Shown here piece after piece: positions 4,495 through 57,878 of a DNA stretch of 64,000 bases. A model generated the notes under the pieces. The model saw only the letters and a list, made by a program, of their open reading frames with translations, searched no databases and was not told where the DNA came from. Each line of letters starts with the position of its first letter. Position 1 is the first letter of the stretch. The stretch is from an uncultured Lactobacillales bacterium (lineage in GTDB: Bacteria > Pseudomonadota > Alphaproteobacteria > CAAHEQ01 > UBA3637), in the NCBI GenBank assembly GCA_964414185.1, contig CAYPVK010000003.1:37085-101084 (forward strand), written 5' to 3'. The position numbers were made by a program, and so were the translations under genes.

Positions 4495-4634
4495 TCAATT
4501 ATATAAAACTATAAAGTTTTTTTAGAACACGGTCAAGGAAAATAAGGTTAAAAAAGTCTTAAAATCTAATTGAATTTATTTGTAAATGAAAGGTTTATGT
4601 CGTTATAAAATTTTTACAATTTGTATAAATACAC

Positions 4635-4688: not shown

Positions 4689-5903
4689 TTAAACGATATT
4701 ATAAAATCCGCGTTTACCGATTTTGATTTTTATGCCGTTTTGGGATTTTCCCAACCTAAACGTCGGATTGGTTGTTTTTTCTCCTTCAACACTTACCGCA
4801 CCGCTTTCAATTAAACGGCGCATGGCCGATTTGCTTTGTTCGGGTTGTAAGGCGACCCCCAAATCCAATAACGTTATTTCGGCATCGGCGGTTAGATTTT
4901 CCCATTTGACAGCCGTAAATTCTTTAGTATCAAATCCGCGTTGTTGGACTTGTTTATAAAAGAATTCTTGAGCGGCATCGGCGTCTTCGCGGCTGTGGTA
5001 TTGTTCAACAATGTTATAAGCGATTTTCTTTTTAATTTCCATCGGATTGACGGTATTATTTTTTAAATCGGCAATAACATTCGCTTTTGTTTCGGCATCC
5101 CAATCCGTAACCAGATCAACCCATTCGGGGATTAAACTGTCGGGAATGGACATTGTCTTGCCGTACATTTCGGTTGCAGGTTCGGTTAAACCGATGTAGT
5201 TGCCTTTGGATTTGCTCATTTTAATATGGCCGTCCAAACCGCATAAAAGAGGCATAGACAAAACAATTTGCCTGGATTTGCCGTCTTGTTCTTGCAAAGA
5301 ACGTCCGACAAGGCAATTTAAAAGTTGATCGCGTCCGCCGAATTCAATATCTGAATTCAACACGTAAGAATCATACCCTTGCATCATCGGATAAATCAAT
5401 TCGTGCAAGGCAATCGGAATATTGTTTTCATACCGATTGACAAAATCTTCACGTTGCATCATTTGAGCCAGCGTTGCTTTTGATAAAAGTTTTAACGTAT
5501 CGGCCAAAGACATTTTCCCCATCCAATCGTTGTTGTGATGAATGGTTAGTTTGGACGTATCAAATATTTTATCCAGTTGGTCAACATACGTTTTGGCATT
5601 TTGATCGACTTCTTCGGGAGTCAGCGGCGGTCTTGTTGTATTTCTGCCCGACGGATCGCCGATACGTGCGGTAAAATCGCCGATAATCAAATGAATTTCA
5701 TGCCCGTTTTCCATAAATTGTTTGATTTTTTTCAAAGCAACAGCATGTCCCAAATGCAAATCGGGTGCAGTCGGATCCATGCCGAATTTAATGATAAGCG
5801 GACGATTTTCTTTTTCGGCAAGTGCCAATTTTTCTTTTAAACCGTTTGCCGGAACGATTGTTTCAATGCCGGCGGATAATTCTTCATATGAGTATTTTGT
5901 CAT
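4689..5903 (-). CDS. tyrS: Tyrosyl-tRNA synthetase
   Basis: HIGH motif (PTAPDLHLGHAV), KMSKS motif and a C-terminal S4-like domain. Confidence 0.95.
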   Translation of the reverse strand: MTKYSYEELSAGIETIVPANGLKEKLALAEKENRPLIIKFGMDPTAPDLHLGHAVALKKIKQFMENGHEIHLIIGDFTARIGDPSGRNTTRPPLTPEEVDQNAKTYVDQLDKIFDTSKLTIHHNNDWMGKMSLADTLKLLSKATLAQMMQREDFVNRYENNIPIALHELIYPMMQGYDSYVLNSDIEFGGRDQLLNCLVGRSLQEQDGKSRQIVLSMPLLCGLDGHIKMSKSKGNYIGLTEPATEMYGKTMSIPDSLIPEWVDLVTDWDAETKANVIADLKNNTVNPMEIKKKIAYNIVEQYHSREDADAAQEFFYKQVQQRGFDTKEFTAVKWENLTADAEITLLDLGVALQPEQSKSAMRRLIESGAVSVEGEKTTNPTFRLGKSQNGIKIKIGKRGFYNIV

Positions 5904-5950
5904 GTTTTAAACCTTCATTGTTTCAGATACGAAAAAAGCTATCACAAATT

Positions 5951-8122
5951 TTAACCGTTTTCAAGAACTTCTTTAACTTTTTCAAGTAAACCCGCCAATT
6001 CGAAAGGCTTGGCCAAAAATTGAAAAGTCTCATGCTTTTGTGAACCGTGACGCGCGAATTCTTCGGAATAGCCGCTCATTAAAATGACTTTCATTTTCGG
6101 TTGAACTTGTTTAGCTTGTTTAATCAGCGTTTCCCCATCCATGCCGGGCATGACCATGTCTGTCAATAATAAATCAATGGGGGTTCCTTTTTGAAATACT
6201 TCAATTGCTTGTTCGGCATTAACACATTCTATAACCGACCACCCTTTGGATTTTAAAGCGCGCGCCGCCACCATACGGACACCGTCTTCGTCATCGACCA
6301 ATAAAATCGTTACCGTTTCTTTCGGAATAAATGTCGGGCGGATTTTTGCGGTTTTGGACAATGTAACGGGTTTTTCTTCAAACATGGGCAAATATATGGT
6401 AAATGTTGTACCGACGTTTTTAATACTGTCCACCGAAATATAACCGTCAACGCCGCGGATAATGCCGTAAACGGTCGATAATCCCAACCCCGTACCCGAT
6501 GCGCCGCCATTTTCTTTTGTTGTAAAAAACGGTTCGAAAATACGCGATAAGTTTTCTTTGGAAATGCCCATGCCGGTATCGGATACTTGGATTTTGACGT
6601 AATCGCCCGGCGTTATCATATCTGTGCCGCAAGCTCTGGTTTTTTTTATTTTTTCTTTGGCGGCCGTGATTTTAAAAGTGCCGCCGCCCGGCATGGCATC
6701 TTTGGCATTTACGGCTAAATTCAAAAAGATTTGCATCAATTGGTTCGGGTCGATTTTAACGGAACCTAATCCGCGTTTAATATCCGTTTTTAACTTAACA
6801 AACGGTGCAATGGAACGTTGGAGCAGGGCGGATAAATCCACAAACGCGTCATGCAGGGAAATCGTTTTGATACGGCTGGGTTGTTTTCGTGAAAAAGTCA
6901 ATAATTGTCCGACCAAACCGGAGGCTTTATTGGCGTTGCCTTTGATTTGCATTAAATCCAAAAAGTCGTCGTCATCCACTTTGTGGCGTTGCAGCAATAA
7001 ATCGCAAAAACCGATAATGGCCGTTAATAAATTGTTGAAATCATGCGCAACCCCGCCGGCCAATTGCCCCATAGCCTGCATCTTTTGGGCGTGAGCAAAC
7101 TGCATTTCCAAATTTTTGCGTTCGGACGCATCTATCAGATAAAGCGCAATCGTTTGTTTGTCGGCATTTGTCCATCCCAACAAAGAAGTAAATGTTTTTG
7201 CTTCATATTCATTGCCGCTGGTTAATTCGACACGTTCATTTTTTAGTGTCCCATTTTGTAATTTTTGAATCTTGGAGCTTAACACATTCGCCGAATTTTC
7301 CGATAAAATGTCAAAGACTTTCATGGTGTCAAGTTTGCCTTCGGGAATACGTAAAGTGGCGTATAAGGCGGGGTTCGCCTGAATGATTTTGCAGTTTGCC
7401 GCATCCATTAAAATGCATGGTATCGGATTGAGTGCAAATAATTCAATGTCTTTTGACAATGTTGCCGGGCGGTAATCTTGAATAAAACCGTAGTAAAAAG
7501 TATAATTGCCCGTCGTGAACGGGTTTTGTGACAGATGAAAACTTTTTTCGCCGTGTTCTGTTTCCAATAGAACGGTCCCTTCCCATGCCGTGGCGGCCGG
7601 CGGCGTATTTTCTTTGATAAACGTCTTTAATTCCTTACCCAAAATTTCTTTGGGCGTTTTGGAAAACAAAGCACACAATGGTTTATTTGCAAATAATATA
7701 TTTCCTTTTGAATCAACAAGATATAACGCTTCTTTAAAGTTTTTAATTAAGTCTGAAACGAACGATAACTGGCGAGATTGGCTTTCAAAAACAGCCGCCC
7801 GGGGCGCAATGTCGCGTGCAACCAATAAAAAGTTTTTTTGCAGTTTTTTTATTGTGATTTCATAAAGGGCATTTTGCGTTTTGATTTGCGTTTCAATCGG
7901 CGTTTTGGAACAATAGGCATCGATTAATTTTTGAACGGCCCCCAAATCTTCGGAATTTTCCAAAAAAGCAAACGGATTTTCTTTTTCTCCGAATAATTTT
8001 TCGCCTTTTTCATTAGACGCCAAAACGTTGTTTTCGGCGGTGCGGATTTGGCGCGCATCATTTTCGGCATTCAGCAACAATTCAAAAATTTTTTTCGTTT
8101 TATTCATCATGTCATATATCAT
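5951..8122 (-). CDS. Hybrid sensor histidine kinase / response regulator with PAS domains
   Basis: HisKA H-box (VAHDFNNLL), HATPase G-boxes (GTGLGLS) and a C-terminal receiver domain (LLVDDEDGVR...LLLTDMVMPGMDG). Confidence 0.9.
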   Translation of the reverse strand: MIYDMMNKTKKIFELLLNAENDARQIRTAENNVLASNEKGEKLFGEKENPFAFLENSEDLGAVQKLIDAYCSKTPIETQIKTQNALYEITIKKLQKNFLLVARDIAPRAAVFESQSRQLSFVSDLIKNFKEALYLVDSKGNILFANKPLCALFSKTPKEILGKELKTFIKENTPPAATAWEGTVLLETEHGEKSFHLSQNPFTTGNYTFYYGFIQDYRPATLSKDIELFALNPIPCILMDAANCKIIQANPALYATLRIPEGKLDTMKVFDILSENSANVLSSKIQKLQNGTLKNERVELTSGNEYEAKTFTSLLGWTNADKQTIALYLIDASERKNLEMQFAHAQKMQAMGQLAGGVAHDFNNLLTAIIGFCDLLLQRHKVDDDDFLDLMQIKGNANKASGLVGQLLTFSRKQPSRIKTISLHDAFVDLSALLQRSIAPFVKLKTDIKRGLGSVKIDPNQLMQIFLNLAVNAKDAMPGGGTFKITAAKEKIKKTRACGTDMITPGDYVKIQVSDTGMGISKENLSRIFEPFFTTKENGGASGTGLGLSTVYGIIRGVDGYISVDSIKNVGTTFTIYLPMFEEKPVTLSKTAKIRPTFIPKETVTILLVDDEDGVRMVAARALKSKGWSVIECVNAEQAIEVFQKGTPIDLLLTDMVMPGMDGETLIKQAKQVQPKMKVILMSGYSEEFARHGSQKHETFQFLAKPFELAGLLEKVKEVLENG

Positions 8123-11356: not shown

Positions 11357-11577
11357 ATTTTATAATAATTTTAAAAATAAGACAACTGAAAAATCATTAA
11401 AATAAGGTTATTTTTGAATTTATTCAATTAAATCACTAAGCGGACATGGGAAAATGTTGCTTGTATTAATTGGTAAATTACTGTTCAATATTCGATTGAA
11501 AGTTTTTTTAATATCGGTTTGGTGCGTGCATATCGCTTTTATGCAGATTGTGTGTAGGTATTTATTTCGGAACGTAT

Positions 11578-11610
11578 AAAAAACCTGTCACAGGACAGGT
11601 TGTTTTTTTA
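11578..11610 (-). terminator. Hairpin plus T-run downstream of tRNA-Asn (copy 1)
   Basis: Palindrome CCTGTCacaGGACAGG flanked by A-runs and T-runs. An identical copy follows tRNA-Asn copy 2. Confidence 0.5.
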
Positions 11611-11685
11611 TGGCTCCGGCGGTAGGGCTCGAACCTACGACCGATCGGTTAACAGCCGATTGCTCTACCACTGAGCTACGCCGGA
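11611..11685 (-). tRNA. tRNA-Asn (GTT)
   Basis: Manual fold: acceptor stem UCCGGCG/CGCCGGA, anticodon loop cuGUUaa, TpsiC arm GGTTCGAGCCC, encoded CCA. Confidence 0.9.
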
Positions 11686-12046
11686 TCCGTAAAAATACAT
11701 TTATCAAATTTTAAAATAAAATGCAAGTATTTTTTATCTAAATAATAATTTTTTTATTCGGTGGAGATAAAATTCATGTAACCTGCAGGGAAAAAAAGGG
11801 AAGGAGTGTGTCAAATTAATTAAACTGTTTTCTGAAGAAGAGTAGAGATAAAGGAGTGATGTAAAGAAAGGACCGTTTCTTTGAGACATGATTTAAAAAA
11901 AAGGCTATATGCTCTGTTTCAAGATTTAATCTTAATTTTTTAGCGGGTTATTAATTTTTCCTTGAACTTTTATTCCTTTTTTTTATGATGCATTCTATCG
12001 GTCGTTTATTTGAAACAAGCGAGTCAAAAGAAAGGGGTATGAAAGC

Positions 12047-13786
12047 ATGGGAAAAATCCAAGCAGGTCGGACGATGATGGAGATGTTGGGAGTGTTATCG
12101 ATAATAGGAGTGCTATCGATAGGAGCGTTATTGGGATATAATTATGCGATAACGAAATATAAATCGAACACGACGATAAACGATTTAAACCGGTTTGTAG
12201 TGGTTGTAACGCAACAAATGGTGATGGGACGCGATAGATTGGATTTGTCGGAAGCGAATAATAAAACGACGTTAAATTATCCGGCAAGTGCGTATTATTT
12301 GGAGGACGACAGATATTTCGAAATTGCATTGGCCGAAGTGCCCCCCAAAGTGTGCCGACAAATCCTCCGCGAAAATTTAAAAGAACCTCTTGTAATAAAA
12401 GTCAACGACTATGCGTATGTAGGAGATACGGGGATATGTGAAGCGGATGATGAAGGGAGTCCGGTAGAGATGGTGTTTCAATATGTATCGGATTTGGACA
12501 GCGATGAATTGCCGTACGGGACATGTAAAGTCGATGCCGATTGTGTTGGGGATTGTGTCAGATGTAATGAAGACGGTTTGTGTGTCTCTACTTGTATAGG
12601 CAACGAACGTTGTGCACAAGATACCTTAACGGGACAAATGTTATGCTGTCCGAAAGATAAACGCGAAGGACCCTATTGTTGTGAAAAGAAGGTCAACGGC
12701 CGTTGTTGCAACAAGTATGACCAATGTTGCCCCTGGTACCGCCCCTTAATCGATAAAAACGGCAACTGTTATGCTTGTGACTATAAAAATCGTGTTGACG
12801 TAACGGGGGTTCAAGATAACTGTAATGTGTGCTCAAATCGCGAGTTGGACGGAAATTGGTGCCGCGTCAAGTGCACTGCGGACAAACCTTTGCGCGATGC
12901 TTATGGTGTCTGCCGCTCTTGCGATGATGAAGCATTTATTTACCAAGGTTCACCGATAAATTCTAAATGCAGTCAAATTTGTCCGAATCGACACTCAAGT
13001 GGTGAAAAAAATTATTATTGCGGCTTAAAGTGTGGTGAGGGCATTTATGCAGATATGCCATTGACTGATTCGTCCGGGGTTTGCCATTCATGTGAGGAAA
13101 CAAGGAATATCAATGTAACCAATGTTCATGAAAATTGCGCAGTATGCCCGCATCGGGAAGTAATTGGTAATTTATGCGCATTGCCATGCCCTGATCCGGA
13201 TAAACCGATGCCCGGAAGCGACGGTAACTGTTATGCGTGTGATGATCCTAAACCGTTAACGGTCGCACAATATTCTTGTTCAGTTTGTCCCAATCGTATT
13301 AGTTTTAACTACCGCTGTATTTTTAAGTGTGGTGAAGGAATAAATGCAAATAAACCTTTGCTCGGGGCCAGTGGTGACTGTTATACGTGCGATGAGCCCA
13401 AAGCGGTTGATGTAAGGCATTCATCCCCAAAATGTGAAGAAATATGTCCCAATCGTGAAAATCTGAATGGTTTTTGTATCATAAACGACTGTGATGATAA
13501 TCAAATGAAGGGCGAAGATGGCAAATGTTATACGTGCGACACGCCCAATGATGCCCGTATAAAAACTCAGATGTGCGATAAATGTCCCAATCGGGTAAAG
13601 TGGGGTGATTATTGCATATTACCGTGTGATGAAGGTATTTATGAAGATATGCCTCTTCCCGATCGATACGGCAACTGTTATGCCTGTGATTACCCATCCC
13701 GGATTGATGTATATGGCGCAACCGATGTTTGCCAAAAAATTTGTCCGGACAGACAACTTGACGAGCACTATTGTGTTTTAAAATGA
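12047..13786 (+). CDS. Cysteine-rich tandem-repeat protein with a prepilin-like (class III signal) N-terminus
   Basis: The N-terminus (QAG|RTMMEMLGVLSIIGVLSIGALL) resembles the type IV pilin methylation/cleavage motif. About 7 diverged repeats of roughly 55 aa follow, each with a GNCYACD...CxxCPNR...CxxxC pattern. Confidence 0.8.
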   Translation: MGKIQAGRTMMEMLGVLSIIGVLSIGALLGYNYAITKYKSNTTINDLNRFVVVVTQQMVMGRDRLDLSEANNKTTLNYPASAYYLEDDRYFEIALAEVPPKVCRQILRENLKEPLVIKVNDYAYVGDTGICEADDEGSPVEMVFQYVSDLDSDELPYGTCKVDADCVGDCVRCNEDGLCVSTCIGNERCAQDTLTGQMLCCPKDKREGPYCCEKKVNGRCCNKYDQCCPWYRPLIDKNGNCYACDYKNRVDVTGVQDNCNVCSNRELDGNWCRVKCTADKPLRDAYGVCRSCDDEAFIYQGSPINSKCSQICPNRHSSGEKNYYCGLKCGEGIYADMPLTDSSGVCHSCEETRNINVTNVHENCAVCPHREVIGNLCALPCPDPDKPMPGSDGNCYACDDPKPLTVAQYSCSVCPNRISFNYRCIFKCGEGINANKPLLGASGDCYTCDEPKAVDVRHSSPKCEEICPNRENLNGFCIINDCDDNQMKGEDGKCYTCDTPNDARIKTQMCDKCPNRVKWGDYCILPCDEGIYEDMPLPDRYGNCYACDYPSRIDVYGATDVCQKICPDRQLDEHYCVLK

Positions 13787-13813
13787 AAAAATCAGGAAAA
13801 ACGAATTTTGTAA

Positions 13814-13853
13814 TATAAAGGGTTTGTATCAAAATTGCTGCAAGCCCTTTATA
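13814..13853 (+). terminator. Imperfect hairpin after the Cys-rich protein gene
   Basis: TATAAAGGGTTTG...CAAGCCCTTTATA. The trailing T-run is weak. Confidence 0.3.
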
Positions 13854-14078
13854 GAATATTAATCGTAAGATTTTGGTTATTTTTTATAAAAGATAATAAA
13901 AACAAGTTATTTGTGATCTTTTGATTGTAAAAGGTAAGATTTTCATTCTTGTATTTGTAAAACTTTTTCTGGGCATTTTAAAGTTTTTGATGTGATTAAA
14001 TAAACAAGCTGATTCTTGTCAATTGCATTGGTGAGGAAAGGATATCAGCCATAATAAAACGTAAAAAGACCCGCCGCA

Positions 14079-14114
14079 AGGACAGGTTGTTTTTTTATGG
14101 CTCCGGCGGTAGGG
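14079..14114 (-). repeat. Partial third copy of the tRNA-Asn 3' end plus its downstream flank
   Basis: 36 bp identical to the 3' terminus of both tRNA-Asn genes together with their shared downstream flank. Identity ends inside the T-arm. Confidence 0.7.
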
Positions 14115-14261
14115 TTGTAAATTCCCATTTTTATGGATATAAAAACTGGCCCCTTTCCGCCTCGCTCACTGCGTTCGTTCGTCTGACGAACCTTAAACGG
14201 CTCTCGCCCTTTCATACGGAACACATAAAAAAAACCTGTCACAGGACAGGTTGTTTTTTTA

Positions 14262-14336
14262 TGGCTCCGGCGGTAGGGCTCGAACCTACGACCGATCGGT
14301 TAACAGCCGATTGCTCTACCACTGAGCTACGCCGGA
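14262..14336 (-). tRNA. tRNA-Asn (GTT), copy 2
   Basis: Identical to copy 1, including the roughly 33-bp downstream hairpin. Confidence 0.9.
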
Positions 14337-14384: not shown

Positions 14385-14459
14385 TGGAGGCCGATGCCGG
14401 AATCGAACCGACATAAAAGGATTTGCAGTCCTCTGCATAAGCCATTCTGCCAATCGGCC
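14385..14459 (-). tRNA. tRNA-Cys (GCA)
   Basis: Manual fold: acceptor GGCCGAU/AUCGGCC, discriminator U73, anticodon loop cuGCAaa, T-arm GGTTCGATTCC, encoded CCA. Confidence 0.85.
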
Positions 14460-28657: not shown

Positions 28658-28674
28658 TAGTATTCATAATATAA
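28658..28674 (+). repeat. Left 17-bp direct repeat (attL candidate) of the phage-like element
   Basis: AGTATTCATAATATAAA, repeated exactly at 36816-36832. Confidence 0.45.
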
Positions 28675-28736
28675 AGTTTATCACACTGATTAGTTAATGG
28701 TGTGTTAATTGAAATACGTTAATTTTATTAAATTAT

Positions 28737-29012
28737 TTACTTTCCTGTGGTAAGATTTTTAATGTCTTTGAGGACATTTGATACATCTTTGTATTCTTTA
28801 AACCTGTCAATAAGAAGGTCCAGAACAACTTCTTTTTCGTCGCAGCCTGCAAGCTTAGCAACTTTTAAAGTTGTTTCGGGGCTTGGAGTGCTCCTTTTTT
28901 GAATAAAATTTGAAATGGAAGCTCCGCTAATTCCGACAACCTTGGCTACTTGATTGTTTGAAGATATGTTGTGTTTCAGCTTGGCCAAATTTACATAAGT
29001 TTCAAAATCCAT
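28737..29012 (-). CDS. XRE-family HTH transcriptional regulator (phage repressor-like)
   Basis: HTH QVAKVVGISGASISNFIQKRS. It is divergent from the replication gene. Confidence 0.7.
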   Translation of the reverse strand: MDFETYVNLAKLKHNISSNNQVAKVVGISGASISNFIQKRSTPSPETTLKVAKLAGCDEKEVVLDLLIDRFKEYKDVSNVLKDIKNLTTGK

Positions 29013-29161
29013 GTTTATCCATCCTTTCTGTTGTAAAGGTGTGATAAACTTTTTTATTATGTGTATAGAAAGTGAGAGGCGACATATTTACGAAAAATGC
29101 TTAACAACTTTTTTAATTATACCATAAAAATTTTTGTTGACAACTGTTTTTTTATTGGCTA

Positions 29162-29950
29162 ATGGTGTATATGTACACTGAAAGACTAACAGTAAAACGA
29201 GAAAAGCTTATGATGCCGCAGTTTACGCAAATACAATTACGAGTTTTAAAAGACAGGCGAGTTTCACCCCGTATGCGCGATGTTATGGGATTATTGCAAT
29301 CAATGATGAATGAACAGGGCGTATGTTGGCCATCGTTCAATTATATAGCCGATTCGTTGGGAATTTCGCGGCGAATGGTTATCAATATAATCAACCAATT
29401 GGTTGAATTGAATTATGTCATCAAAATGAAGCGCACAATCGAGGGGACGAACGAACAAACAAGCAATTATTATGCGATTAATAACAACTATGACGCAGGG
29501 TTGGCATTGCGCAAAAAGCGGGGTGGAAAACAGGCGCACAAGCTTGTGAATAAATCCGATTTCGGGGTGAAAAAAATTTCACCACCCCCTAGTGAAAAAA
29601 ATTTCACCCCGAATCAAGTAGATATTTTTTTAACTAAATGCGCGCATACACGTGAGCGCGCGGGCGCGCGTGTACGCGCGAACGGGACTTTGCAAGTTGG
29701 ATTTAATTGTTTTGACCAGCTTGTATGGCGAGAGGTCGGAAACGTACTTGAAGAGCAGGGATTTAGTCTTCAAGGTCTTAAAATTGAAAAGAAACAAGAC
29801 AAACATTACGTTATCCGGCCTTTCGAGATAAAAAACGAGGCGGCAAAGGACATCATAACTGCGGCGAATTTGGCTTTGCAGGAAATGAAAGGTCGAAAAA
29901 TCGGGAAAATAACTATACCGCCGGAAATATCATTGCAGGAGGCGATTTAA
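29162..29950 (+). CDS. Phage/plasmid-type replication initiator with a winged HTH (HTH_36-like)
   Basis: N-terminal motif CWPSFNYIADSLGISRRMVINIINQLVELNYV. The gene contains iteron-like repeats and a GC-rich inverted repeat. Confidence 0.6.
   Translation: MVYMYTERLTVKREKLMMPQFTQIQLRVLKDRRVSPRMRDVMGLLQSMMNEQGVCWPSFNYIADSLGISRRMVINIINQLVELNYVIKMKRTIEGTNEQTSNYYAINNNYDAGLALRKKRGGKQAHKLVNKSDFGVKKISPPPSEKNFTPNQVDIFLTKCAHTRERAGARVRANGTLQVGFNCFDQLVWREVGNVLEEQGFSLQGLKIEKKQDKHYVIRPFEIKNEAAKDIITAANLALQEMKGRKIGKITIPPEISLQEAI
29563..29611 (+). repeat. Two copies of the hairpin-forming 16-mer GTGAAAAAAATTTCAC inside the rep gene (iteron-like)
   Basis: Copies lie at 29567-29582 and 29592-29607. They are enclosed by the outer inverted repeat CGGGGTGAAA...TTTCACCCCG. 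Confidence 0.5.
29640..29680 (+). repeat. GC-rich (about 80% GC) inverted repeat inside the rep gene
   Basis: CGCGCATACACG...CGTGTACGCGCG with 1 mismatch and a 16-bp GC spacer. The composition is strongly atypical for this genome. Confidence 0.4.
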
Positions 29951-30120
29951 TGGCAAAAAGAAAGTATTATTTTACGGTTACTATGGCTCCAGCGGGTCAT
30001 TTTGTAGGCGATTTTGAAACGCTTGAAGCGGCTATGGGCTACTTGAGAAAAAACTTTAATATGAACTTAACGGGCATGGCAGAAATGTTTACCATTGTCA
30101 AAAAGGAATTCAAACAATGA
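29950..30120 (+). CDS. Small hypothetical protein (56 aa)
   Basis: TAATG overlap with the rep stop upstream and ATGA overlap with the next ORF downstream, both consistent with translational coupling. Confidence 0.4.
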   Translation: MAKRKYYFTVTMAPAGHFVGDFETLEAAMGYLRKNFNMNLTGMAEMFTIVKKEFKQ

Positions 30121-30461
30121 AAGAAGATTTTGCGCGGATGAAGTGCCCGGCGTGTGGAGCGGAAACGTTTATACGGATAAATAAAAACCGAATTTTATAT
30201 ACATATTGCCCTATGGGGCATCATTTGAAGTTGACGGCACAAGAAAGCCGCCAAGCAATCCCGGTTCTTACCACGGGCAAGCCATGGAACAATGGCATTT
30301 TATTTTTGTATCCACTAACGAAAGGAAAGCAAGACAATGGAACAAACAATGATGAACGAGTTGAAATTGGACGACGGGGAAATAGCGAATGTACCACCAA
30401 TCAACGAGATGGAAACACAAGAGCAGATGGAACAAATACCACCGATTGGTGGAACGTTTGA
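30117..30461 (+). CDS. Zn-ribbon protein
   Basis: CPACG...YCPMGH near the N-terminus. Coupled to the upstream ORF. Confidence 0.5.
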   Translation: MKEDFARMKCPACGAETFIRINKNRILYTYCPMGHHLKLTAQESRQAIPVLTTGKPWNNGILFLYPLTKGKQDNGTNNDERVEIGRRGNSECTTNQRDGNTRADGTNTTDWWNV

Positions 30462-30876
30462 GGCAGGTTTAAACGATATTATAACGCCTGATGATTTTTA
30501 TAATGGATTTAAAAGTGTTTTTGCTTTTGCGGGAGAATATACATCGACACAAAGCTTGCCAATTCAAGCACATGAAGAGCAGGGCGCGCGGCGCACGTCG
30601 GACAAACTGTATGAAATGGCTTTAAAATATCCTTTCTTGCGTTTTATGATTGATACAAAAACGTCATGGTTAGCAGACGTCAGTTTGATTAGTTTATTCG
30701 TTTATGGCAAAACAAATGCCGTGTTAGAAGAAAAAACAGGTTACGGATTGAATAAAATAATTTTTGGGAGGTTGGGCAAATGGTTACCGAAGCGAAAAGG
30801 GTCGGGATTTTTGGCGCGTCTGGGTCTGGGAAAACGACCAAAGCAAGAACAATCATCAGAAGTACAAAAAGATTAA
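30337..30876 (+). CDS. Hypothetical protein (overlapping frame)
   Basis: It covers the 318-bp gap before the ATPase gene and contains one hydrophobic segment. It overlaps neighbouring genes in another frame. Confidence 0.3.
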   Translation: MEQTMMNELKLDDGEIANVPPINEMETQEQMEQIPPIGGTFEAGLNDIITPDDFYNGFKSVFAFAGEYTSTQSLPIQAHEEQGARRTSDKLYEMALKYPFLRFMIDTKTSWLADVSLISLFVYGKTNAVLEEKTGYGLNKIIFGRLGKWLPKRKGSGFLARLGLGKRPKQEQSSEVQKD

Positions 30877-38021: not shown

Positions 38022-39104
38022 TTAAATACCTGATTTACGGCGATTACAATCTTTGCACAACATTTGGCAATTATCGAGTACGGTTTTCCCGCCGCTATGC
38101 CAAGGTGTAATATGGTCCCCTTCCATTTGATTGATTCCAAATGAACGGTTGCATTTCGGGCAAACGCCCTTTTGGCGTTCATAAGCTTCACGCTTCATAT
38201 TCTGGGTAAAGGCGCGAATATTCAGATGCTTTTCTTCACCGGATAAAACATAAGCATAAATACCGGATTTTTTCGTTACATCATCATCTTGCATAAGGGT
38301 CGTTATCCGTTTTTCCATTTCAACATTATTGACGGGGTTATCTTTAAACTGATTGTATAAATTCCCCCAGTTAATGCCTTTCATTTCTTTGCGATAGTTT
38401 GGAAAAATTGTTTTGACCCAATTAATCACATTTTGAAAATGTAACCATAATTCATTTGCATTCGGATCATGTTGATGCTTTGCCATATAGGATTGAATTT
38501 GCTCTTCACTTACCCAATCGATAGCCGTTTTAAGATATTCTTGCCGAATAGTCGCCCCTTTCACATAATCTTTGGCAATATTGTATGCAGGGCAATTTGT
38601 TTTGCTGAAATGTCGTTTTGCGTCCGTCAACCATTCGCCCGTATACATGGCATTTAATAATTCTTGATCGGTTAATTCTTCACCCGCAATATTAATTGTT
38701 CGGAACCATTCCAATTTTTCTTTATCCGTTCCTTCACAAATATAAATCATCAATTCATACTTTAATATCCGTTCCTTATCGGCGTTAGTTAAATTAAAAA
38801 AATAATTTCCGTTATATGAAAAATTCCCTTTTGCATATTCGCAAATGCTGACGGTTCTTTGTTGCCCGTCCAATAATTCGAATGTTTCGTCTTCATTTTT
38901 ACACCAATACATAACATTCAACGGAAAATCCTTTATGACGGTATCAATAACGGCTTCGCGTTGTTTTTCATTATACACGAATTCCCGTTGATATTTAGAG
39001 CGGATATTTAATCGGCCGTTGTATCCGATAACCCCCTCCTCTTCGGTGTTGGTGTACCCTTCAATTAAATCCTTGATTAAAATTTTGTTTAATTCTATTT
39101 TCAT
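38022..39104 (-). CDS. DUF262 (ParB-like nuclease, DGQQR) plus HNH endonuclease protein
   Basis: LDGQQRTVSI motif near the N-terminus. C-terminal HNH CPKCNRSF...GDHITPWHSGGKTVLDNCQMLCKDCNRRK. Confidence 0.7.
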   Translation of the reverse strand: MKIELNKILIKDLIEGYTNTEEEGVIGYNGRLNIRSKYQREFVYNEKQREAVIDTVIKDFPLNVMYWCKNEDETFELLDGQQRTVSICEYAKGNFSYNGNYFFNLTNADKERILKYELMIYICEGTDKEKLEWFRTINIAGEELTDQELLNAMYTGEWLTDAKRHFSKTNCPAYNIAKDYVKGATIRQEYLKTAIDWVSEEQIQSYMAKHQHDPNANELWLHFQNVINWVKTIFPNYRKEMKGINWGNLYNQFKDNPVNNVEMEKRITTLMQDDDVTKKSGIYAYVLSGEEKHLNIRAFTQNMKREAYERQKGVCPKCNRSFGINQMEGDHITPWHSGGKTVLDNCQMLCKDCNRRKSGI

Positions 39105-39284
39105 TTCTTTTTCCTGATCAGAATACGTCTGTAAGTTTCTTTCCCATTAATTAATCCATTCATTGTCCCGCCTGCTCTGCCTGTTACGCTCAATGGATGA
39201 AAACAATCTATGGGTTCCGTTTCCTGCGAATTGTGATTCTGGCGTAAGTAATTTTCCCATTTATTTTTCCTTCCGCATTTTTTA

Positions 39285-40109
39285 TCATCCCCGGAATCGC
39301 CATTGTACAAGGATACGAAAGTACGGTTGAATTCTCTCTCTGGTGAAAACTAGGTCTTTTCCATCTTCACCTTTGCGAAAACAAACAATTTCAAATTGAT
39401 CGGGATTATACTTATCAAGAAAAGTTATCGGTACACCCATAACGCCGTCATAATCACACGGAATATCGGAAACTTTGCTGACTTCAATGGCGTCATAGTT
39501 ATCATATTTTGGATATGCTTCGGGGGAATAATTACGATATAAAATCATTTCTTCATAGCGTTTTTTGTGTTCCAAGTTGGTGAACCAACAAACATTACCC
39601 ATTAAACGCCATTTTTGCCCCCGCTCATCTATTTGAAAACCTGTCATCTTTTTCTCATAATATTCGGGAACCATAAATTTTTTAACTTTTTGATAGCCCA
39701 ACCATAACTTATTTTCTTTAATCAAGGGAAAAATTTCTTTATATGTAATGGCATTTTGATTGCCAATTACAACGAATTTTTTGCCATATTCCACAAGTTG
39801 GGCAATATATTCGCGGAAAAGGGAAAATGGCGGATTTGTACAAACAATATCGGCTTGTTTCAACAGTTCGATACATTCTATGCTTCTGAAATCGCCGTTG
39901 CCTTTTAAACGTGTTAAGGCATTCTTTTTGTTCGCAAGCAATATTTTGATATCACTTAAATCAAAAGCCCCGTCCGAATTTTTGTCGGTAACTTCCGTAA
40001 TAATAATTTTATGCGCTTGTCGGGTGGTTTTGTTTTCTTTCGGTTCAAAATCGAAAAGGGATAATTCCGTATCGGCAATCGGGGAACCGTCATAACAAGT
40101 GGCAATCAA
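39285..40109 (-). CDS. N6-adenine DNA methyltransferase (NPPF motif), 3' portion in the main frame
   Basis: Motif IV DIVCTNPPF. The ORF as given starts at a TTG. The frame stays open upstream as far as a TGA at 40368-40370. Confidence 0.7.
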   Translation of the reverse strand: MIATCYDGSPIADTELSLFDFEPKENKTTRQAHKIIITEVTDKNSDGAFDLSDIKILLANKKNALTRLKGNGDFRSIECIELLKQADIVCTNPPFSLFREYIAQLVEYGKKFVVIGNQNAITYKEIFPLIKENKLWLGYQKVKKFMVPEYYEKKMTGFQIDERGQKWRLMGNVCWFTNLEHKKRYEEMILYRNYSPEAYPKYDNYDAIEVSKVSDIPCDYDGVMGVPITFLDKYNPDQFEIVCFRKGEDGKDLVFTRERIQPYFRILVQWRFRG

Positions 40110-54567: not shown

Positions 54568-56781
54568 TTAATCCAATTGCATTGTGCCGATTGTTTCCAA
54601 ATCGTCTTCTTCATTGACAAAATCTTCAGGCATCGGACCAACCGGTTTAATTTTTGACAATTCTTTGTACTGCGGTATTTTGGAATACAGCGGTGTTTGT
54701 CCGACAATCGGACGATATAATTTGCCGGCATATAAAACAATTTGTTTTGTATTCGGCATATTTAGGAAAGTTGAACCGCCGATAACCGTATCATCTTTTG
54801 TTTTTATTTTAAGTTTATGTTCATTCCAAAAAGTTGCCCCCATCCCTTTGAAATTTCCCGGCAAAAGTGAACTCGAAAGATCCAATTTACAACGGCTTTT
54901 ATCATAGCTGCGAACGACCTTTGTCAATGTTTCGATACCCTTTGTCAACTTATTACGTGTTTCGGGATTATTGTTGCGTTTGATTATTTTTGCGGCTACC
55001 GAACTCATAATCGTATCGGCCGTTTCTTGATTATATTTTGCCGAAATTTGATGCCAATCTTGGACACAGATAAAAAATGAATTTCCCTTTGAACGTCCGA
55101 AAACAATACCGTCGGCAATACTTTTTAATGATGGCATATGATGAAATTCATCTAAAATGAAAGTCATCGGGAAAGGCCCCATTCCGTCTTCATTCGGACC
55201 GCTTTTCATCAAAGCATTCATAGACATGTTGATGAATAAGCTGTTGACAAGCATTGTCGAACCCAAATCCGACAAAGGAACCGACAAATAAATCGTAATG
55301 GGGCGATATGTGCCGTCAATATCTTGAATGCCGCGTAATTGATCATAATTAATGTCATTTAATGATGTACGCAACCGAACGGCGGCATTTTTAAAAATAT
55401 TAATGCCCGAAAGTGCCATTGATACGACAGAACCGCGTTGTTTATCCGGCAATGCTTCAACTTGAGACAATTCCAGTAATGTCCGCCGTCCGTATCCGTA
55501 ATAAGCCGTTTCCAAAACAGCTTCTTCCAAAATCATCTTCCACGCATCCGTGTTTAAAGCTGTGACATCTTGTTCCAAGCGCCTTTGTTTCAATTGTTCG
55601 TTGTATTTCATTTGCGTATTGTTTAAAACATCCAACAACATCGCAAAACATGCATCGGAGCCCCGCCAATTTTTCGGAATAATGCCCCATTTACCGATAG
55701 GCAAATAATTTTCTTTGGTAATGCGTCGCGCACGAGCATTTTTAAGGGCTTCTTGCACTTCGGGAAAATCGCGCATTGTTTCATAATAGGAAATCAGTAC
55801 AACATAATCTTCTTCATCCAAAGCATCTTGTTCAATTTTATATAAAAAGTAATCATTGGCTTTTGCCTGATCGACTTTCCCGCACAACCACCCCGTTAAG
55901 CCGGTTAAACACCCGCGCCCTGCCTTTGTCCAATACGGATCGGTTCCCGTGGGGCCGTCCGGGATTAAAAAGTCAATCAATTCATCAATGTAACCTTCCC
56001 TGCCGCCTTGGATTGATGGCAGATTGTCCCCGCCCAACGGATTCCAAGACGGCCAACGGATACCCTTTGACGGGTCGTCAAGTGCACCCCAATTCAATTT
56101 AAAAACGGGGCCTAATGTCGCACGATAACCGCTGGTAGCGGCAGCTATTTCACCTTTTGGATCATGAATAATCAAACAGGTATCTTGAGCTTCAAAGATT
56201 GCGGGAATAATACATCCCACTGTTTTTCCTGTACCGGGCGCGCCGATACAAAAGACCGAACGGCAATCGGGCAACTTCATTTTCGAACCGTTCATCATGC
56301 CTAAAAACAATCCTTTTCCGGTCAACAGGCCGAATTCTTTTAAATCTTTTTTTGTCGCCACACGTCCGTCGCCGAATGTTCGAGGTGCCAAATAGTACGG
56401 ATTTTTAACCGGAATCATCAATTCATACCAAATGAATAAACCGATCGGAATAATCGGCAGTTTCCAAGCAAAAAAACTGCCCCAAGTCGTATGGCGCGGC
56501 TCATTCGTAACCCATTGGGTCAAAGATGTCCAATATGTGGTGAACGGCAAAAAGACATTGCCCGAAAAAACAGCTTTAAAATAAGTACCGTACATGCCGC
56601 CCAATTCGTTCCAATAACCTTTTATTGCCGCATATGTAAACGGTATCCAAAACAATAATAAAATCCATAATAAAACGATACCCAATAAAGCACGCCACCA
56701 CCAAAATTTCAATGCCTTGCGCGTTGATTCGGATTCTTCTTTAAACCTGAAAATTTTAAAATGGTCAAATATCATGATCAA
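54568..56781 (-). CDS. virD4: Type IV secretion coupling protein (VirD4/TraG family)
   Basis: N-terminal TM helices, Walker A GAPGTGKTVG, TraG/TrwB-like length and motifs. Confidence 0.8.
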   Translation of the reverse strand: MIMIFDHFKIFRFKEESESTRKALKFWWWRALLGIVLLWILLLFWIPFTYAAIKGYWNELGGMYGTYFKAVFSGNVFLPFTTYWTSLTQWVTNEPRHTTWGSFFAWKLPIIPIGLFIWYELMIPVKNPYYLAPRTFGDGRVATKKDLKEFGLLTGKGLFLGMMNGSKMKLPDCRSVFCIGAPGTGKTVGCIIPAIFEAQDTCLIIHDPKGEIAAATSGYRATLGPVFKLNWGALDDPSKGIRWPSWNPLGGDNLPSIQGGREGYIDELIDFLIPDGPTGTDPYWTKAGRGCLTGLTGWLCGKVDQAKANDYFLYKIEQDALDEEDYVVLISYYETMRDFPEVQEALKNARARRITKENYLPIGKWGIIPKNWRGSDACFAMLLDVLNNTQMKYNEQLKQRRLEQDVTALNTDAWKMILEEAVLETAYYGYGRRTLLELSQVEALPDKQRGSVVSMALSGINIFKNAAVRLRTSLNDINYDQLRGIQDIDGTYRPITIYLSVPLSDLGSTMLVNSLFINMSMNALMKSGPNEDGMGPFPMTFILDEFHHMPSLKSIADGIVFGRSKGNSFFICVQDWHQISAKYNQETADTIMSSVAAKIIKRNNNPETRNKLTKGIETLTKVVRSYDKSRCKLDLSSSLLPGNFKGMGATFWNEHKLKIKTKDDTVIGGSTFLNMPNTKQIVLYAGKLYRPIVGQTPLYSKIPQYKELSKIKPVGPMPEDFVNEEDDLETIGTMQLD

Positions 56782-57878
56782 TTCCTGTTCTTCAAGTTGG
56801 ATTTAGTCGTTTTGGGTTGCCCCGTAATTCGCTTGGGCCCGTTAGCCGTTGTTTCATCGACATCGGTATCTTGATTAATATCCGTTTGTTCCGTTACGGG
56901 AACGGGTGTATGTACCTCTTCTTCATACGGAACATAAACGATTTCGGGGATGCGATCATCTTTGAGCGGTGGGCGGAATAATTCGTTTTGAGGTGTATAA
57001 ACGCGCTTGTCGGCATTTTCCAGTTCATTTTTAGCATATTCTTGCAGTTCTTTTTTTCTGGCTTGCGCAAATTTTAAAGTTGCCGTTTTAATCGCTTTGG
57101 TATCCATTTTTTCCACTTCGCGATAATAATGCAGTAGCCCTTCCAAACTTAATAATCGATTCGGATCAACATAAACGCCACGCAAATTGACTCCTTCCAA
57201 ATCAAAAGCCGACAAATCAATGCCTTTTAAATCTACATTGGTTAAATCCAAACGCCGCAAATCCAAATGCAACAAATCGGATTTTGACAAAAACCGAATA
57301 TCTATCTGACCCGCTTCAATTTGTTTTATCAAAAATTCAAGTGCCGTCAATTTTTTTAAATCTTTTTCATCGATAGCCGTATTTTTCAGGTTTAATTTGC
57401 ACGCATAAATTCGATTCCAATCGGCACCGAAAAAATCCGATCCTTCAAAATCAACTTCTTCCATATATGCTTCGGTGAAATCAGCCCCTTCAAAATCACA
57501 ATTTTTAGCCGTAGTTTTGTAAAAAACGGCACCGGACAAATTAGCGCCTTTTAAACAAGCACCCGAAATATCAGCCCCTTTTAAATTAACGCCGGAAAAA
57601 TCTCTTCCTTGTAAATCAATCCCCGCTTTTACCGCTTGAACAAGCTCAACAGCCCGTTTGTCGGAGCGGTAGTCATCACGAACGGAAGGTAATATAAATT
57701 CTTGGGTATCTATGCCCAAAGAAAAATACATCATATCCGAATCGGTTATTTTCGTATCTGCGACTTTCATCGCCGGACGTGTCATTTCTTTTTTCATAAC
57801 AGAAATTATAGCACAGAAAAATAAAAAAGAAATAAAAAAAGGATGACTTTTGTTCAAATTTATACTATAAAATGACAT
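56778..57878 (-). CDS. Pentapeptide-repeat protein
   Basis: Long run of A(D/N)LxG pentapeptides (GADISGACLKGANLSGAVF...). ATGA overlap with virD4. Confidence 0.75.
   Translation of the reverse strand: MSFYSINLNKSHPFFISFLFFCAIISVMKKEMTRPAMKVADTKITDSDMMYFSLGIDTQEFILPSVRDDYRSDKRAVELVQAVKAGIDLQGRDFSGVNLKGADISGACLKGANLSGAVFYKTTAKNCDFEGADFTEAYMEEVDFEGSDFFGADWNRIYACKLNLKNTAIDEKDLKKLTALEFLIKQIEAGQIDIRFLSKSDLLHLDLRRLDLTNVDLKGIDLSAFDLEGVNLRGVYVDPNRLLSLEGLLHYYREVEKMDTKAIKTATLKFAQARKKELQEYAKNELENADKRVYTPQNELFRPPLKDDRIPEIVYVPYEEEVHTPVPVTEQTDINQDTDVDETTANGPKRITGQPKTTKSNLKNRN

Follow-up and report, generated by a model that had tools for sequence, protein, structure and literature searches.

A tRNA-Asn duplication inherited among uncultured gut Alphaproteobacteria, with a variable spacer that appears to have taken in a promoter switch and a pilin-like gene

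Two identical tRNA-Asn(GTT) genes lie 2.65 kb apart in a 64-kb stretch of DNA from an uncultured alphaproteobacterium (64,000 nucleotides of contig CAYPVK010000003.1, the whole of which is referred to here as the window), and the space between them holds a gene for a 579-residue, cysteine-rich protein with a pilin-like N-terminal part. An earlier note on this sequence had left the choice between a decayed islet marked by integration scars and a recombination-driven duplication hot spot. Comparison with close relatives favors the latter, a recombination-prone duplication with a relocated cargo, over the integration-scar islet. The arrangement is best explained, with a probability of around 0.6, as an inherited tandem duplication of tRNA-Asn whose variable spacer took in a promoter switch together with the pilin-like gene. 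A unit comprising promoter, tRNA, terminator and a downstream segment, S, would have been tandemly duplicated in the ancestor of a small clade of gut Alphaproteobacteria, after which gene conversion would have kept both copies identical within each genome. The AT-rich spacer, along with the DNA just downstream, would then have acted as a hot spot for insertions and deletions. Into this spacer, a block of 1.9 kb, extending from the left inverted repeat of the switch to the stop codon of the gene, would have been inserted in the common ancestor of the window and a relative referred to here as L047.

The tRNA genes were called with ARAGORN and Rfam, and all coordinates are in the numbering of the 64-kb window unless a relative's locus is named. 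The features of the tRNA pair are the following:

14385-14459, minus strand: tRNA-Cys(GCA) (ARAGORN, Rfam), which heads a conserved tRNA-Cys/tRNA-Asn unit diverging from tolC.
14262-14336, minus strand: tRNA-Asn(GTT) copy 2 (ARAGORN, Rfam), 48 nucleotides (nt) downstream of tRNA-Cys.
14233-14252, minus strand: "new-type" terminator hairpin of copy 2, identical to the copy-1 hairpin (terminator scan, folding).
11698-11726, minus strand: promoter-like site of copy 1, with TTGCAT and TAAATG separated by 17 nt, which ends about 12 nt before the 5' end of the tRNA (read from the sequence).
11611-11685, minus strand: tRNA-Asn(GTT) copy 1, the distal copy (ARAGORN; Rfam tRNA, 72 bits).
11582-11601, minus strand: "new-type" terminator hairpin AACCTGTCCTGTGACAGGTT of copy 1 (terminator scan; fold -11.2 kcal/mol, z -2.85).

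Across 108 nt that take in the terminator, the two Asn copies do not differ at any position (11578-11685 = 14229-14336), and 112 of the 114 positions in 11572-11685 match the corresponding stretch at copy 2. The ARAGORN and Rfam calls, together with this exact repeat, bear out the earlier description of two identical tRNA-Asn(GTT) genes with a shared downstream hairpin. Both genes are complete and have the same orientation, as in a tandem duplication. The AACCTGTCCTGTGACAGGTT hairpin has T-runs on both sides and scores as an intrinsic terminator in either direction in the terminator scan; the two hairpins fold with energies of -11 to -16 kcal/mol (z -2.9 and -5.2). Motifs resembling TTGCAT-17-TAAATG precede other tRNA genes in relatives, and the site ahead of copy 1 is presumably its promoter. 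Each tRNA-Asn copy would thus be a separate transcription unit with its own expression and termination signals. An Rfam scan of 10.5-15.5 kb, with E values of up to 1, gave the three tRNAs and nothing else. It was also correctly noted earlier that a single gene lies between the copies; the sole long open reading frame (ORF) is that at 12047-13786 on the plus strand, encoding 579 residues of which 58 are cysteine.

Relatives were retrieved via the adjacent TolC, giving 36 loci that come nearly all from metagenome-assembled genomes of uncultured Alphaproteobacteria from animal guts. The position of copy 2 is common to all relatives. In 22 more distant relatives, in which TolC is 37-77% identical, a single tRNA-Asn is found behind tRNA-Cys and upstream of tolC, and it follows from this that the single copy is the older state. 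Every close lineage (TolC 94-98% identical) has two copies:

L047, on a 273-kb contig: TolC 98%; copies at 5834-5908 and 6675-6749; period 841 nt.
L043: TolC 97%; copies at 4542-4616 and 4955-5029, 338 nt apart with no intervening gene; period 413 nt.
L056, contiguous: TolC 94%; copies at 5417-5491 and 6175-6249; period 758 nt.
L027/L053 (UBA7488): TolC 94%; a scaffold gap interrupts one of the two copies.
L052: TolC 94%; a scaffold gap interrupts one of the two copies.

In the three contiguous assemblies (L043, L047 and L056) the spacers measure 338-766 nt and contain no intact gene, and a stretch of 60-180 nt upstream of copy 1, including TTGCAT-17-TAAATG, is conserved in all close two-copy lineages. 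Since two copies flank a spacer without an intact gene in these three loci, the duplication is older than the cargo, and from the sequences compared it is a feature inherited across related genomes. The earlier note had looked to relatives for a lone tRNA-Asn without the cargo gene as the mark of an insertion; the cargo is indeed absent from L043 and L056, but both tRNA copies are already there. The idea that the full copies are scars of the integration of this cargo cannot be maintained, as the duplication is common to lineages that lack it.

The same comparison bears on two further ways in which such a pair might arise. A circular DNA carrying a full tRNA-Asn and the cargo, for instance from a related strain, could have recombined at the resident tRNA-Asn in a single Campbell-type step. 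A single crossover of this kind would leave perfect direct repeats on either side of the cargo, such as the 108-nt repeats observed, and a ComF-like gene is present in the window. However, the two-copy state and the copy-1 promoter flank are common to lineages without the cargo, which places the duplication first, and the spacers of L043, L056 and L027 hold no remnants of switch or coding sequence; we consider this route improbable. The duplication might also be an artefact in which one tRNA-Asn was duplicated by mis-assembly, given that a 108-nt exact repeat exceeds typical k-mers and that short-read contigs of relatives end inside tRNA-Asn. Against this, the 5' flanks of the two copies differ from each other and each is conserved in its own right, and the same architecture is found in the three independent contiguous assemblies, making an artefact unlikely in the window. 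Breaks of this kind are expected in metagenomes anyway, the tRNA being identical across co-occurring species, and contig ends inside tRNA-Asn, which occur in many short-read and Logan assemblies, were for this reason rejected as evidence of a repeat. Mis-assembly is accordingly scarcely credible here. A run of N in L027 was considered as masking, an interpretation rejected because the scaffold gap is already in the original record.

Two of the relatives carry variant copies. Copy 1 of L043 (4542-4616) differs by two substitutions, located in the T stem and acceptor 3' strand, and in copy 2 of L052 (6175-6249) the anticodon GGT (Thr) replaces GTT. A redundant copy may here be decaying or being retargeted, or the variants may be assembly errors. 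Within genomes the flanks of the copies are near-identical, whereas between genomes they have diverged, and it is from this pattern that gene conversion is deduced.

The DNA around copy 1 is far less constant than the tRNA genes themselves. The region downstream of copy 1 in the window (11357-11577), when compared with 4428-5690 of L047 and 2066-4540 of L043, has lost a Band_7/SPFH gene, a gene for a 64-residue membrane protein and segment S. These are found downstream of copy 1 in all close relatives, and they lie between copy 1 and orf192 in L027, L043, L047 and L056, and L043 has an extra, inserted gene in this interval, encoding a CgtA-like glycosyltransferase. The content in or beside the spacer is different in each of the four two-copy lineages, and the tRNA-Asn pair is thus the site of a hot spot where DNA is gained and lost in small pieces.

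A third, truncated copy of the tRNA lies near copy 2, along with the segment S:

14117-14223, no strand assigned: segment S, 107 nt, with a G+C content of 0.477, which follows tRNA-Asn in relatives.
14098-14114, minus strand: tRNA-Asn relic, the last 17 nt, comprising the T-stem 3' strand, acceptor 3' strand, discriminator base and CCA.
14069-14087, minus strand: "old-type" terminator hairpin ACCTGTCCTTGCGGCGGGT with a T-run, following the tRNA fragment (terminator scan, folding).

The partial copy at 14079-14114 was described in the earlier note as 17 nt of tRNA plus 19 nt of flank, and it does form an exact 36-nt match of this composition; similarity at 81-83% extends it to 14056. The terminators of tRNA-Asn in L047 and L043 are of the old type (…CCTTGCGGCGGG…), as found after the fragment of the window, and 14063-14114, a stretch of 52 nt, matches the terminator and tRNA end of L047 copy 2 at 98% identity. 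The GC-rich character previously attributed to 14117-14223, between the fragment and copy 2, is likewise real, its G+C content of 0.477 comparing with a window average of 0.398 and with 0.26-0.29 for neighboring intergenic DNA. In L047, S follows both tRNA-Asn copies (5691-5800 and 6540-6650), with 94% identity to that of the window, while L043 has S after copy 1 and a shorter, divergent version after copy 2. Its presence after both copies in L047 indicates that S is a native downstream flank in this sub-clade rather than something delivered with the cargo. What comes after S (the end of which reads …GGGAATTTAC) also resembles the fragment: in L043, about 60 nt after the S of copy 1 align with the fragment and old terminator of the window (z 5.4, p 0.0015), and the equivalent sequence in L047 has a collinear exact 11-mer in common with the fragment region (p 0.01).

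S had no match in Rfam, and its fold is not significant (z -1.6); comparison with phage records and viral contigs also gave no match. A short-word BLAST of S, of the AT-rich stretch 13787-14060 and of the spacer at 11686-11860 against the loci other than L043 and L047 returned only tRNA-promoter-like motifs. A possible plus-strand promoter, TTGTAA-17-TATAAA, is seen at 14112-14140, with S lying between it and the bidirectional terminator. S could be a small RNA convergent with the tRNA.

The fragment had been thought to stand on the wrong side of the cargo for a simple integration. The 36-nt repeat pair (14079-14114 and 14243-14278) encloses only the terminator and S, a matter of 128 nt, and the cargo lies outside it; the fragment would belong to an older unit bracketing S, with decayed counterparts after copy 1 in L043 and L047. 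An ancestral unit composed of tRNA, terminator, S, 3' fragment and second terminator can be proposed with moderate strength. It would have arisen by an insertion or local duplication of 128 nt at the 3' end of the tRNA, older than or concurrent with the tandem duplication, so that the fragment and its old-type terminator would represent a truncated repeat unit or else the scar left when a small piece of DNA was inserted long ago at the 3' end of the tRNA. The fragment would have escaped the later homogenization that gave both full copies the new-type terminator, keeping its old terminator because it is too short for the gene conversion that homogenizes the full copies. With moderate confidence, then, the fragment appears to be on the correct side for this old 128-nt event and to be unconnected to the pilin-like gene.

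A classical integrase-mediated islet, in which an element carrying the pilin-like gene entered tRNA-Asn site-specifically at its 3' end and was subsequently deprived of its integrase, would have the tRNA repeats as its attachment (att) sites. Such an islet might show an exact direct repeat like that of 36 nt, which takes in the final 17 nt of the tRNA; it might also account for the lack of the cargo in L043 and L056 and for the mildly atypical k-mer composition of the region (z 1.76). Islands built by an integrase are bounded by an intact tRNA and, at the opposite end, by a direct repeat of its 3' end, whereas this cargo lies between two full-length tRNA genes that each have a promoter of their own. 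Moreover, the duplication occurs without the cargo in L043, L056 and L027, and the 36-nt repeat brackets only the native terminator and S. As the earlier note had also remarked, no integrase is present: a Pfam scan of ORFs of at least 110 residues across the 64 kb gave no integrase or recombinase match, the ORF of the 1057-residue AddA having been scanned against NCBIfam only. The pilin-like family has no relatives among the viral contigs and phage records searched. On these comparisons the islet is largely refuted as an account of the cargo and is highly unlikely.

The composition of the gene had been put forward as a sign of foreign origin, on account of an abundance of NNG codons in its 5' part. 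Third-position G is raised in codons 1-160 (0.33, as against a window mean of 0.214 with a standard deviation of 0.046), but it is 0.14 in the rest of the gene, and orthologues of 69-70% identity do not have the raised value in codons 1-160. The G+C content of the whole gene, 0.43, is typical for the window, and its codon fit lies 1.5 standard deviations under the mean of the window, a range into which several other genes fall; codon usage is therefore weak evidence of foreignness. The k-mer check that the earlier note had recommended, on tetranucleotide distance, places 11686-14261 in the top 6% of windows (z 1.76).

The pilin-like gene and the switch that precedes it comprise the following features:

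11863-11875, plus strand: left inverted repeat AAAGAAAGGACCG, 13 nt.
11876-11998, plus strand: putative invertible segment, 123 nt long, in the opposite orientation to that of L047 and L037.
11999-12011, plus strand: right inverted repeat CGGTCGTTTATTT, 13 nt.
12047-13786, plus strand: gene for the 579-residue type-IV-pilin-like protein (ORF; motif, profile and predicted fold).
13801-13866, plus strand: long hairpin 3' of the stop codon, the probable gene terminator (fold -25.3 kcal/mol, z -5.4; conserved in L047).

At least 134 homologues of the protein were found, all in uncultured gut or rumen Alphaproteobacteria and none annotated. Exact look-ups of the protein and of orf192 returned no record, and a metagenome scan with the protein gave a single locus, L041. 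The context of orthologues was inspected in seven contigs (L037-L042), and wherever the contig includes the flanks the gene lies between a SurA/PpiD-like rotamase gene (ppiD) and rpmE. No tRNA is near the gene in these seven contigs, and ppiD, rpmE and topA are all missing from the window. Protein identities to the window gene are:

L037 and L038: 89%.
L042: 83%.
L041: 81%.
L040: 70%.
L039: 69%.

At the DNA level, the window is homologous to L037 only in the coding sequence (12052-13776, 88.6%) and in a 160-nt upstream segment that matches in reverse orientation. The L047 spacer still has the promoter flank of copy 1 and the switch segment, together with about 50 codons from the end of the gene and its terminator hairpin; some 1.6 kb is deleted (window 12016-13595). 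This remnant is 85% identical to the window, as are other fast-evolving parts of the locus, a similarity that supports vertical inheritance of the insertion. There is no trace of the pilin-like gene in the spacers of L043, L056 and L027, and a blastx search of the L027 spacer, which has a small Cys-rich ORF, found no match to the family (best E 0.97). With a remnant in L047 and none in these three, the simplest history would be one insertion of switch plus coding sequence in the ancestor of the window and L047, the cargo having been relocated or copied into the spacer in this lineage, or acquired from a sister lineage. The block could have come by an intragenomic move, by copying, or by such transfer, and its insertion would probably have occurred by illegitimate or short-homology recombination. 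In the window the gene is intact and its promoter is in the ON orientation, while in L047 1.6 kb of the gene has been lost. The ratio of nonsynonymous to synonymous divergence (dN/dS) of the window gene against L037 is 0.17, which shows the gene to be under purifying selection.

The gene might also have come horizontally from the ppiD-rpmE locus of a sister lineage and been placed in the spacer through illegitimate recombination, a version of the favored explanation in which only the source of the block is different. The dS of the gene against L037, 0.42, is far below the tolC dS of 1.3 between the window and the UBA7488-like lineage, and this lineage co-occurs with L041 in one metagenome; L041 and L056 come from one metagenome assembly, and L040 and L063 from one sample. 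The ppiD-rpmE alleles (L037/L038, L041, L042) differ by up to 9% in protein, with flanks differing by about 1% in DNA, a pattern suggestive of allele exchange; between L037 and L042, for example, dS is 0.21. On the rpmE side of the locus, DNA identity among the contigs is 98.9-99.3%. These figures suggest a hypervariable locus encoding a surface protein, with allele exchange or diversifying selection. However, tolC dS is 0.34 between the window and L047 and 0.63 between the window and L043, and if L037 came from an L043- or L047-like host (0.34-0.63), vertical descent too would accommodate a dS of 0.42. We consider a horizontal source unlikely.

The segment upstream of the gene appears to be an inverton. 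Its inverted repeats are complementary at 11 of 13 positions, and a promoter scan, based on consensus match only, finds a sigma-70-like promoter within it, TTGAAC (11962-11967) and TATGAT (11984-11989) separated by 16 nt. This promoter faces the gene in the window and faces away from it in L037, L038 and L047, the L037 motif having been read from the sequence. The interior of the segment aligns better in reverse than forward, with scores of 131 versus 44.5 for L047 and 104 versus 43.5 for L037; the reverse-aligned interiors are identical at 95 of 123 and 87 of 117 positions, respectively, and the outer flanks are collinear. Equivalent repeats are found in L039 and L040 (AACGACCGTT … AACGGTCGTT), the L039 pair being 22 nt in length. 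We regard 11863-12011 as a candidate inverton controlling the pilin-like gene. The Pfam scan of the window found no site-specific recombinase among ORFs of at least 110 residues, and the enzyme could be encoded elsewhere in the genome. Another conceivable account makes the switch and gene, as a block of about 1.9 kb, a self-contained cassette that moved between the ppiD-rpmE locus and the tRNA-Asn spacer through the action of its own putative invertase at a pseudo-site; this we think improbable.

The explanation by an inherited duplication with an accommodating spacer has several points against it. The homology of the post-S sequences to the tRNA fragment is statistically modest, and the gene conversion of the tRNA-Asn copies is something that we infer. 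The two orientations of the switch come from comparison between genomes. The lineage of the ppiD-rpmE contigs is inferred solely from co-occurrence in samples (L041 with L056; L040 with L063). Finally, the coding sequence is the most k-mer-atypical 1.74-kb stretch of the window, which leaves some room for a foreign source, although its oddity can be ascribed to Cys-rich (10% of residues) internal repeats.

Motif and predicted fold support a pilin-like nature for the 579-residue protein. The N-terminus, MGKIQAG|RTMMEMLGVLSIIGVLSIGALL (QAG|RTMMEML), is of the prepilin type: positions -1, +1 and +5 are Gly, Arg and Glu, respectively, and the alpha-1 helix is hydrophobic. In an alignment (A3) of 44 sequences, 43 of them homologues, E12, M13, L14, G15 and L17 are invariant or nearly so. 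The family profile matches only type IV pilins among sequences of the Protein Data Bank (PDB), and does so weakly (E 0.03-0.7). No family of Pfam or NCBIfam, including N_methyl and TIGR02532, reaches threshold with the protein. An AlphaFold2 model with a mean predicted local distance difference test (pLDDT) score of 85.1 has a 50-residue helix (10-59) packed on a sheet (79-147), and in a Foldseek search of the PDB the top 12 matches are all type IVb pilins, TcpA or CofA, with a best E of 2.4e-3 and a probability of 1.0 for the best eight. The target TM-scores (TMt) are 0.33-0.50, and 0.43-0.50 for eight pilin chains solved by cryo-electron microscopy. The predicted pilin head occupies approximately residues 10-150, and 55 of the 58 cysteines fall in residues 161-579, which form a Cys-rich linker and seven modules of about 50 residues, each ending in G-x-C-[Y/H/R]-x-C-[D/E].

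The Gly(-1)/Glu(+5) N-terminus and the 50-residue alpha-1 helix on a beta-sheet are thus features that the protein has in common with the type IVb pilins TcpA and CofA, by fold match. TcpB and CofB are type IVb minor pilins with large C-terminal domains, and the extra C-terminal domains of the pilin-like protein resemble these tip minor pilins. Unlike type IVb pilins, it has Arg at +1 and no N_methyl/TIGR02532 match, and its C-terminal part is made up of seven Cys-rich modules without detectable homologue. There are no genes for type IV pilus machinery or prepilin peptidase in the 64-kb window.

Parallels for the locus as a whole can be found among known tRNA-linked systems and promoter switches. 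The identical, multi-copy tRNA-Asn genes of E. coli (asnT, asnW, asnU and asnV) are kept uniform by gene conversion and have variable genes between them. The window pair is similar in having a promoter and terminator for each copy, strain-variable intervening DNA and concerted evolution, but it differs in comprising only two copies, 0.4-2.65 kb apart across a clade that is uncultured. The High-Pathogenicity Island of Yersinia and E. coli is located at asn tRNA genes (PMC2801613). Variable DNA beside tRNA-Asn and a cargo that is absent in some relatives are common to that island and the window. Both also have a direct repeat comprising the final 17 nucleotides of the tRNA gene, the island repeat measuring 17 bp. 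In contrast to the island, the window locus has no integrase, its cargo is found between two complete tRNAs, its 3'-end repeat brackets only a native segment of 128 nt, and its duplication is older than the cargo. Invertons that drive fimbrial genes are well documented, those of the gut having been catalogued by PhaseFinder and DeepInverton, and fimS of E. coli is an invertible promoter (PMC11602134). The switch of the window resembles the fimS type in being a short segment with inverted repeats and a sigma-70-like promoter, upstream of a pilus- or fimbria-type gene and found in two orientations. It is unlike fimS in that no recombinase gene is adjacent, the differences in orientation are between genomes only, and both the clade and the gene family are undescribed.

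Elsewhere in the window, a block of 8.1 kb at 28659-36843 consists of compact plus-strand ORFs, with Pfam matches to HTH_36, weakly to a HerA/DUF87 ATPase, to a P2_C double-jelly-roll coat protein (E 3.8e-6) and to a cell-wall hydrolase. A 17-nt direct repeat, AGTATTCATAATATAAA, bounds it with no mismatch between the copies, and from the right copy the sequence runs on as what we take to be a dif-like site, AGTATTCATAA-TATAAA-TTATGCGACAA. The block looks like a PM2/corticovirus-type prophage that would have integrated at dif via XerCD, having no integrase of its own; the P2_C coat protein had no match among viral contigs. GC skew in the window tracks the coding strand, and for this reason neither supports nor opposes the dif reading. 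Just beyond this dif-like site and tRNA-Gln (37202-37275), a small defense islet at 38022-40109 carries a gene for a GmrSD_N plus HNH endonuclease and one for an EcoRI-type adenine methyltransferase (E 5.5e-107). At 54568-57878, a gene for a VirD4/TraG-type coupling protein of type IV secretion is followed by one for a pentapeptide-repeat protein, and no other conjugation genes lie nearby within the window.

The locus is a case of ordinary genome evolution of already-known kinds, namely a tandem tRNA duplication with a variable spacer, a pilin-like gene apparently controlled by an inverton, and an old scar at a tRNA 3' end. It also offers a caution, in that duplicated tRNA ends beside an odd gene can mimic an integration scar, whereas relatives reveal an inherited duplication with a fast-changing spacer. 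Should the cassette account hold, phase-variable pilin cassettes would be mobile in uncultured gut Alphaproteobacteria, and this protein would be the first of a new class of Cys-rich adhesins at the pilus tip. Of more use is an uncharacterized protein family, without a Pfam model, that unites a predicted type IV pilin head with Cys-rich modules and that a conserved invertible promoter appears to control; in a gut clade about which little is known, it is a candidate for a surface adhesin subject to phase variation.

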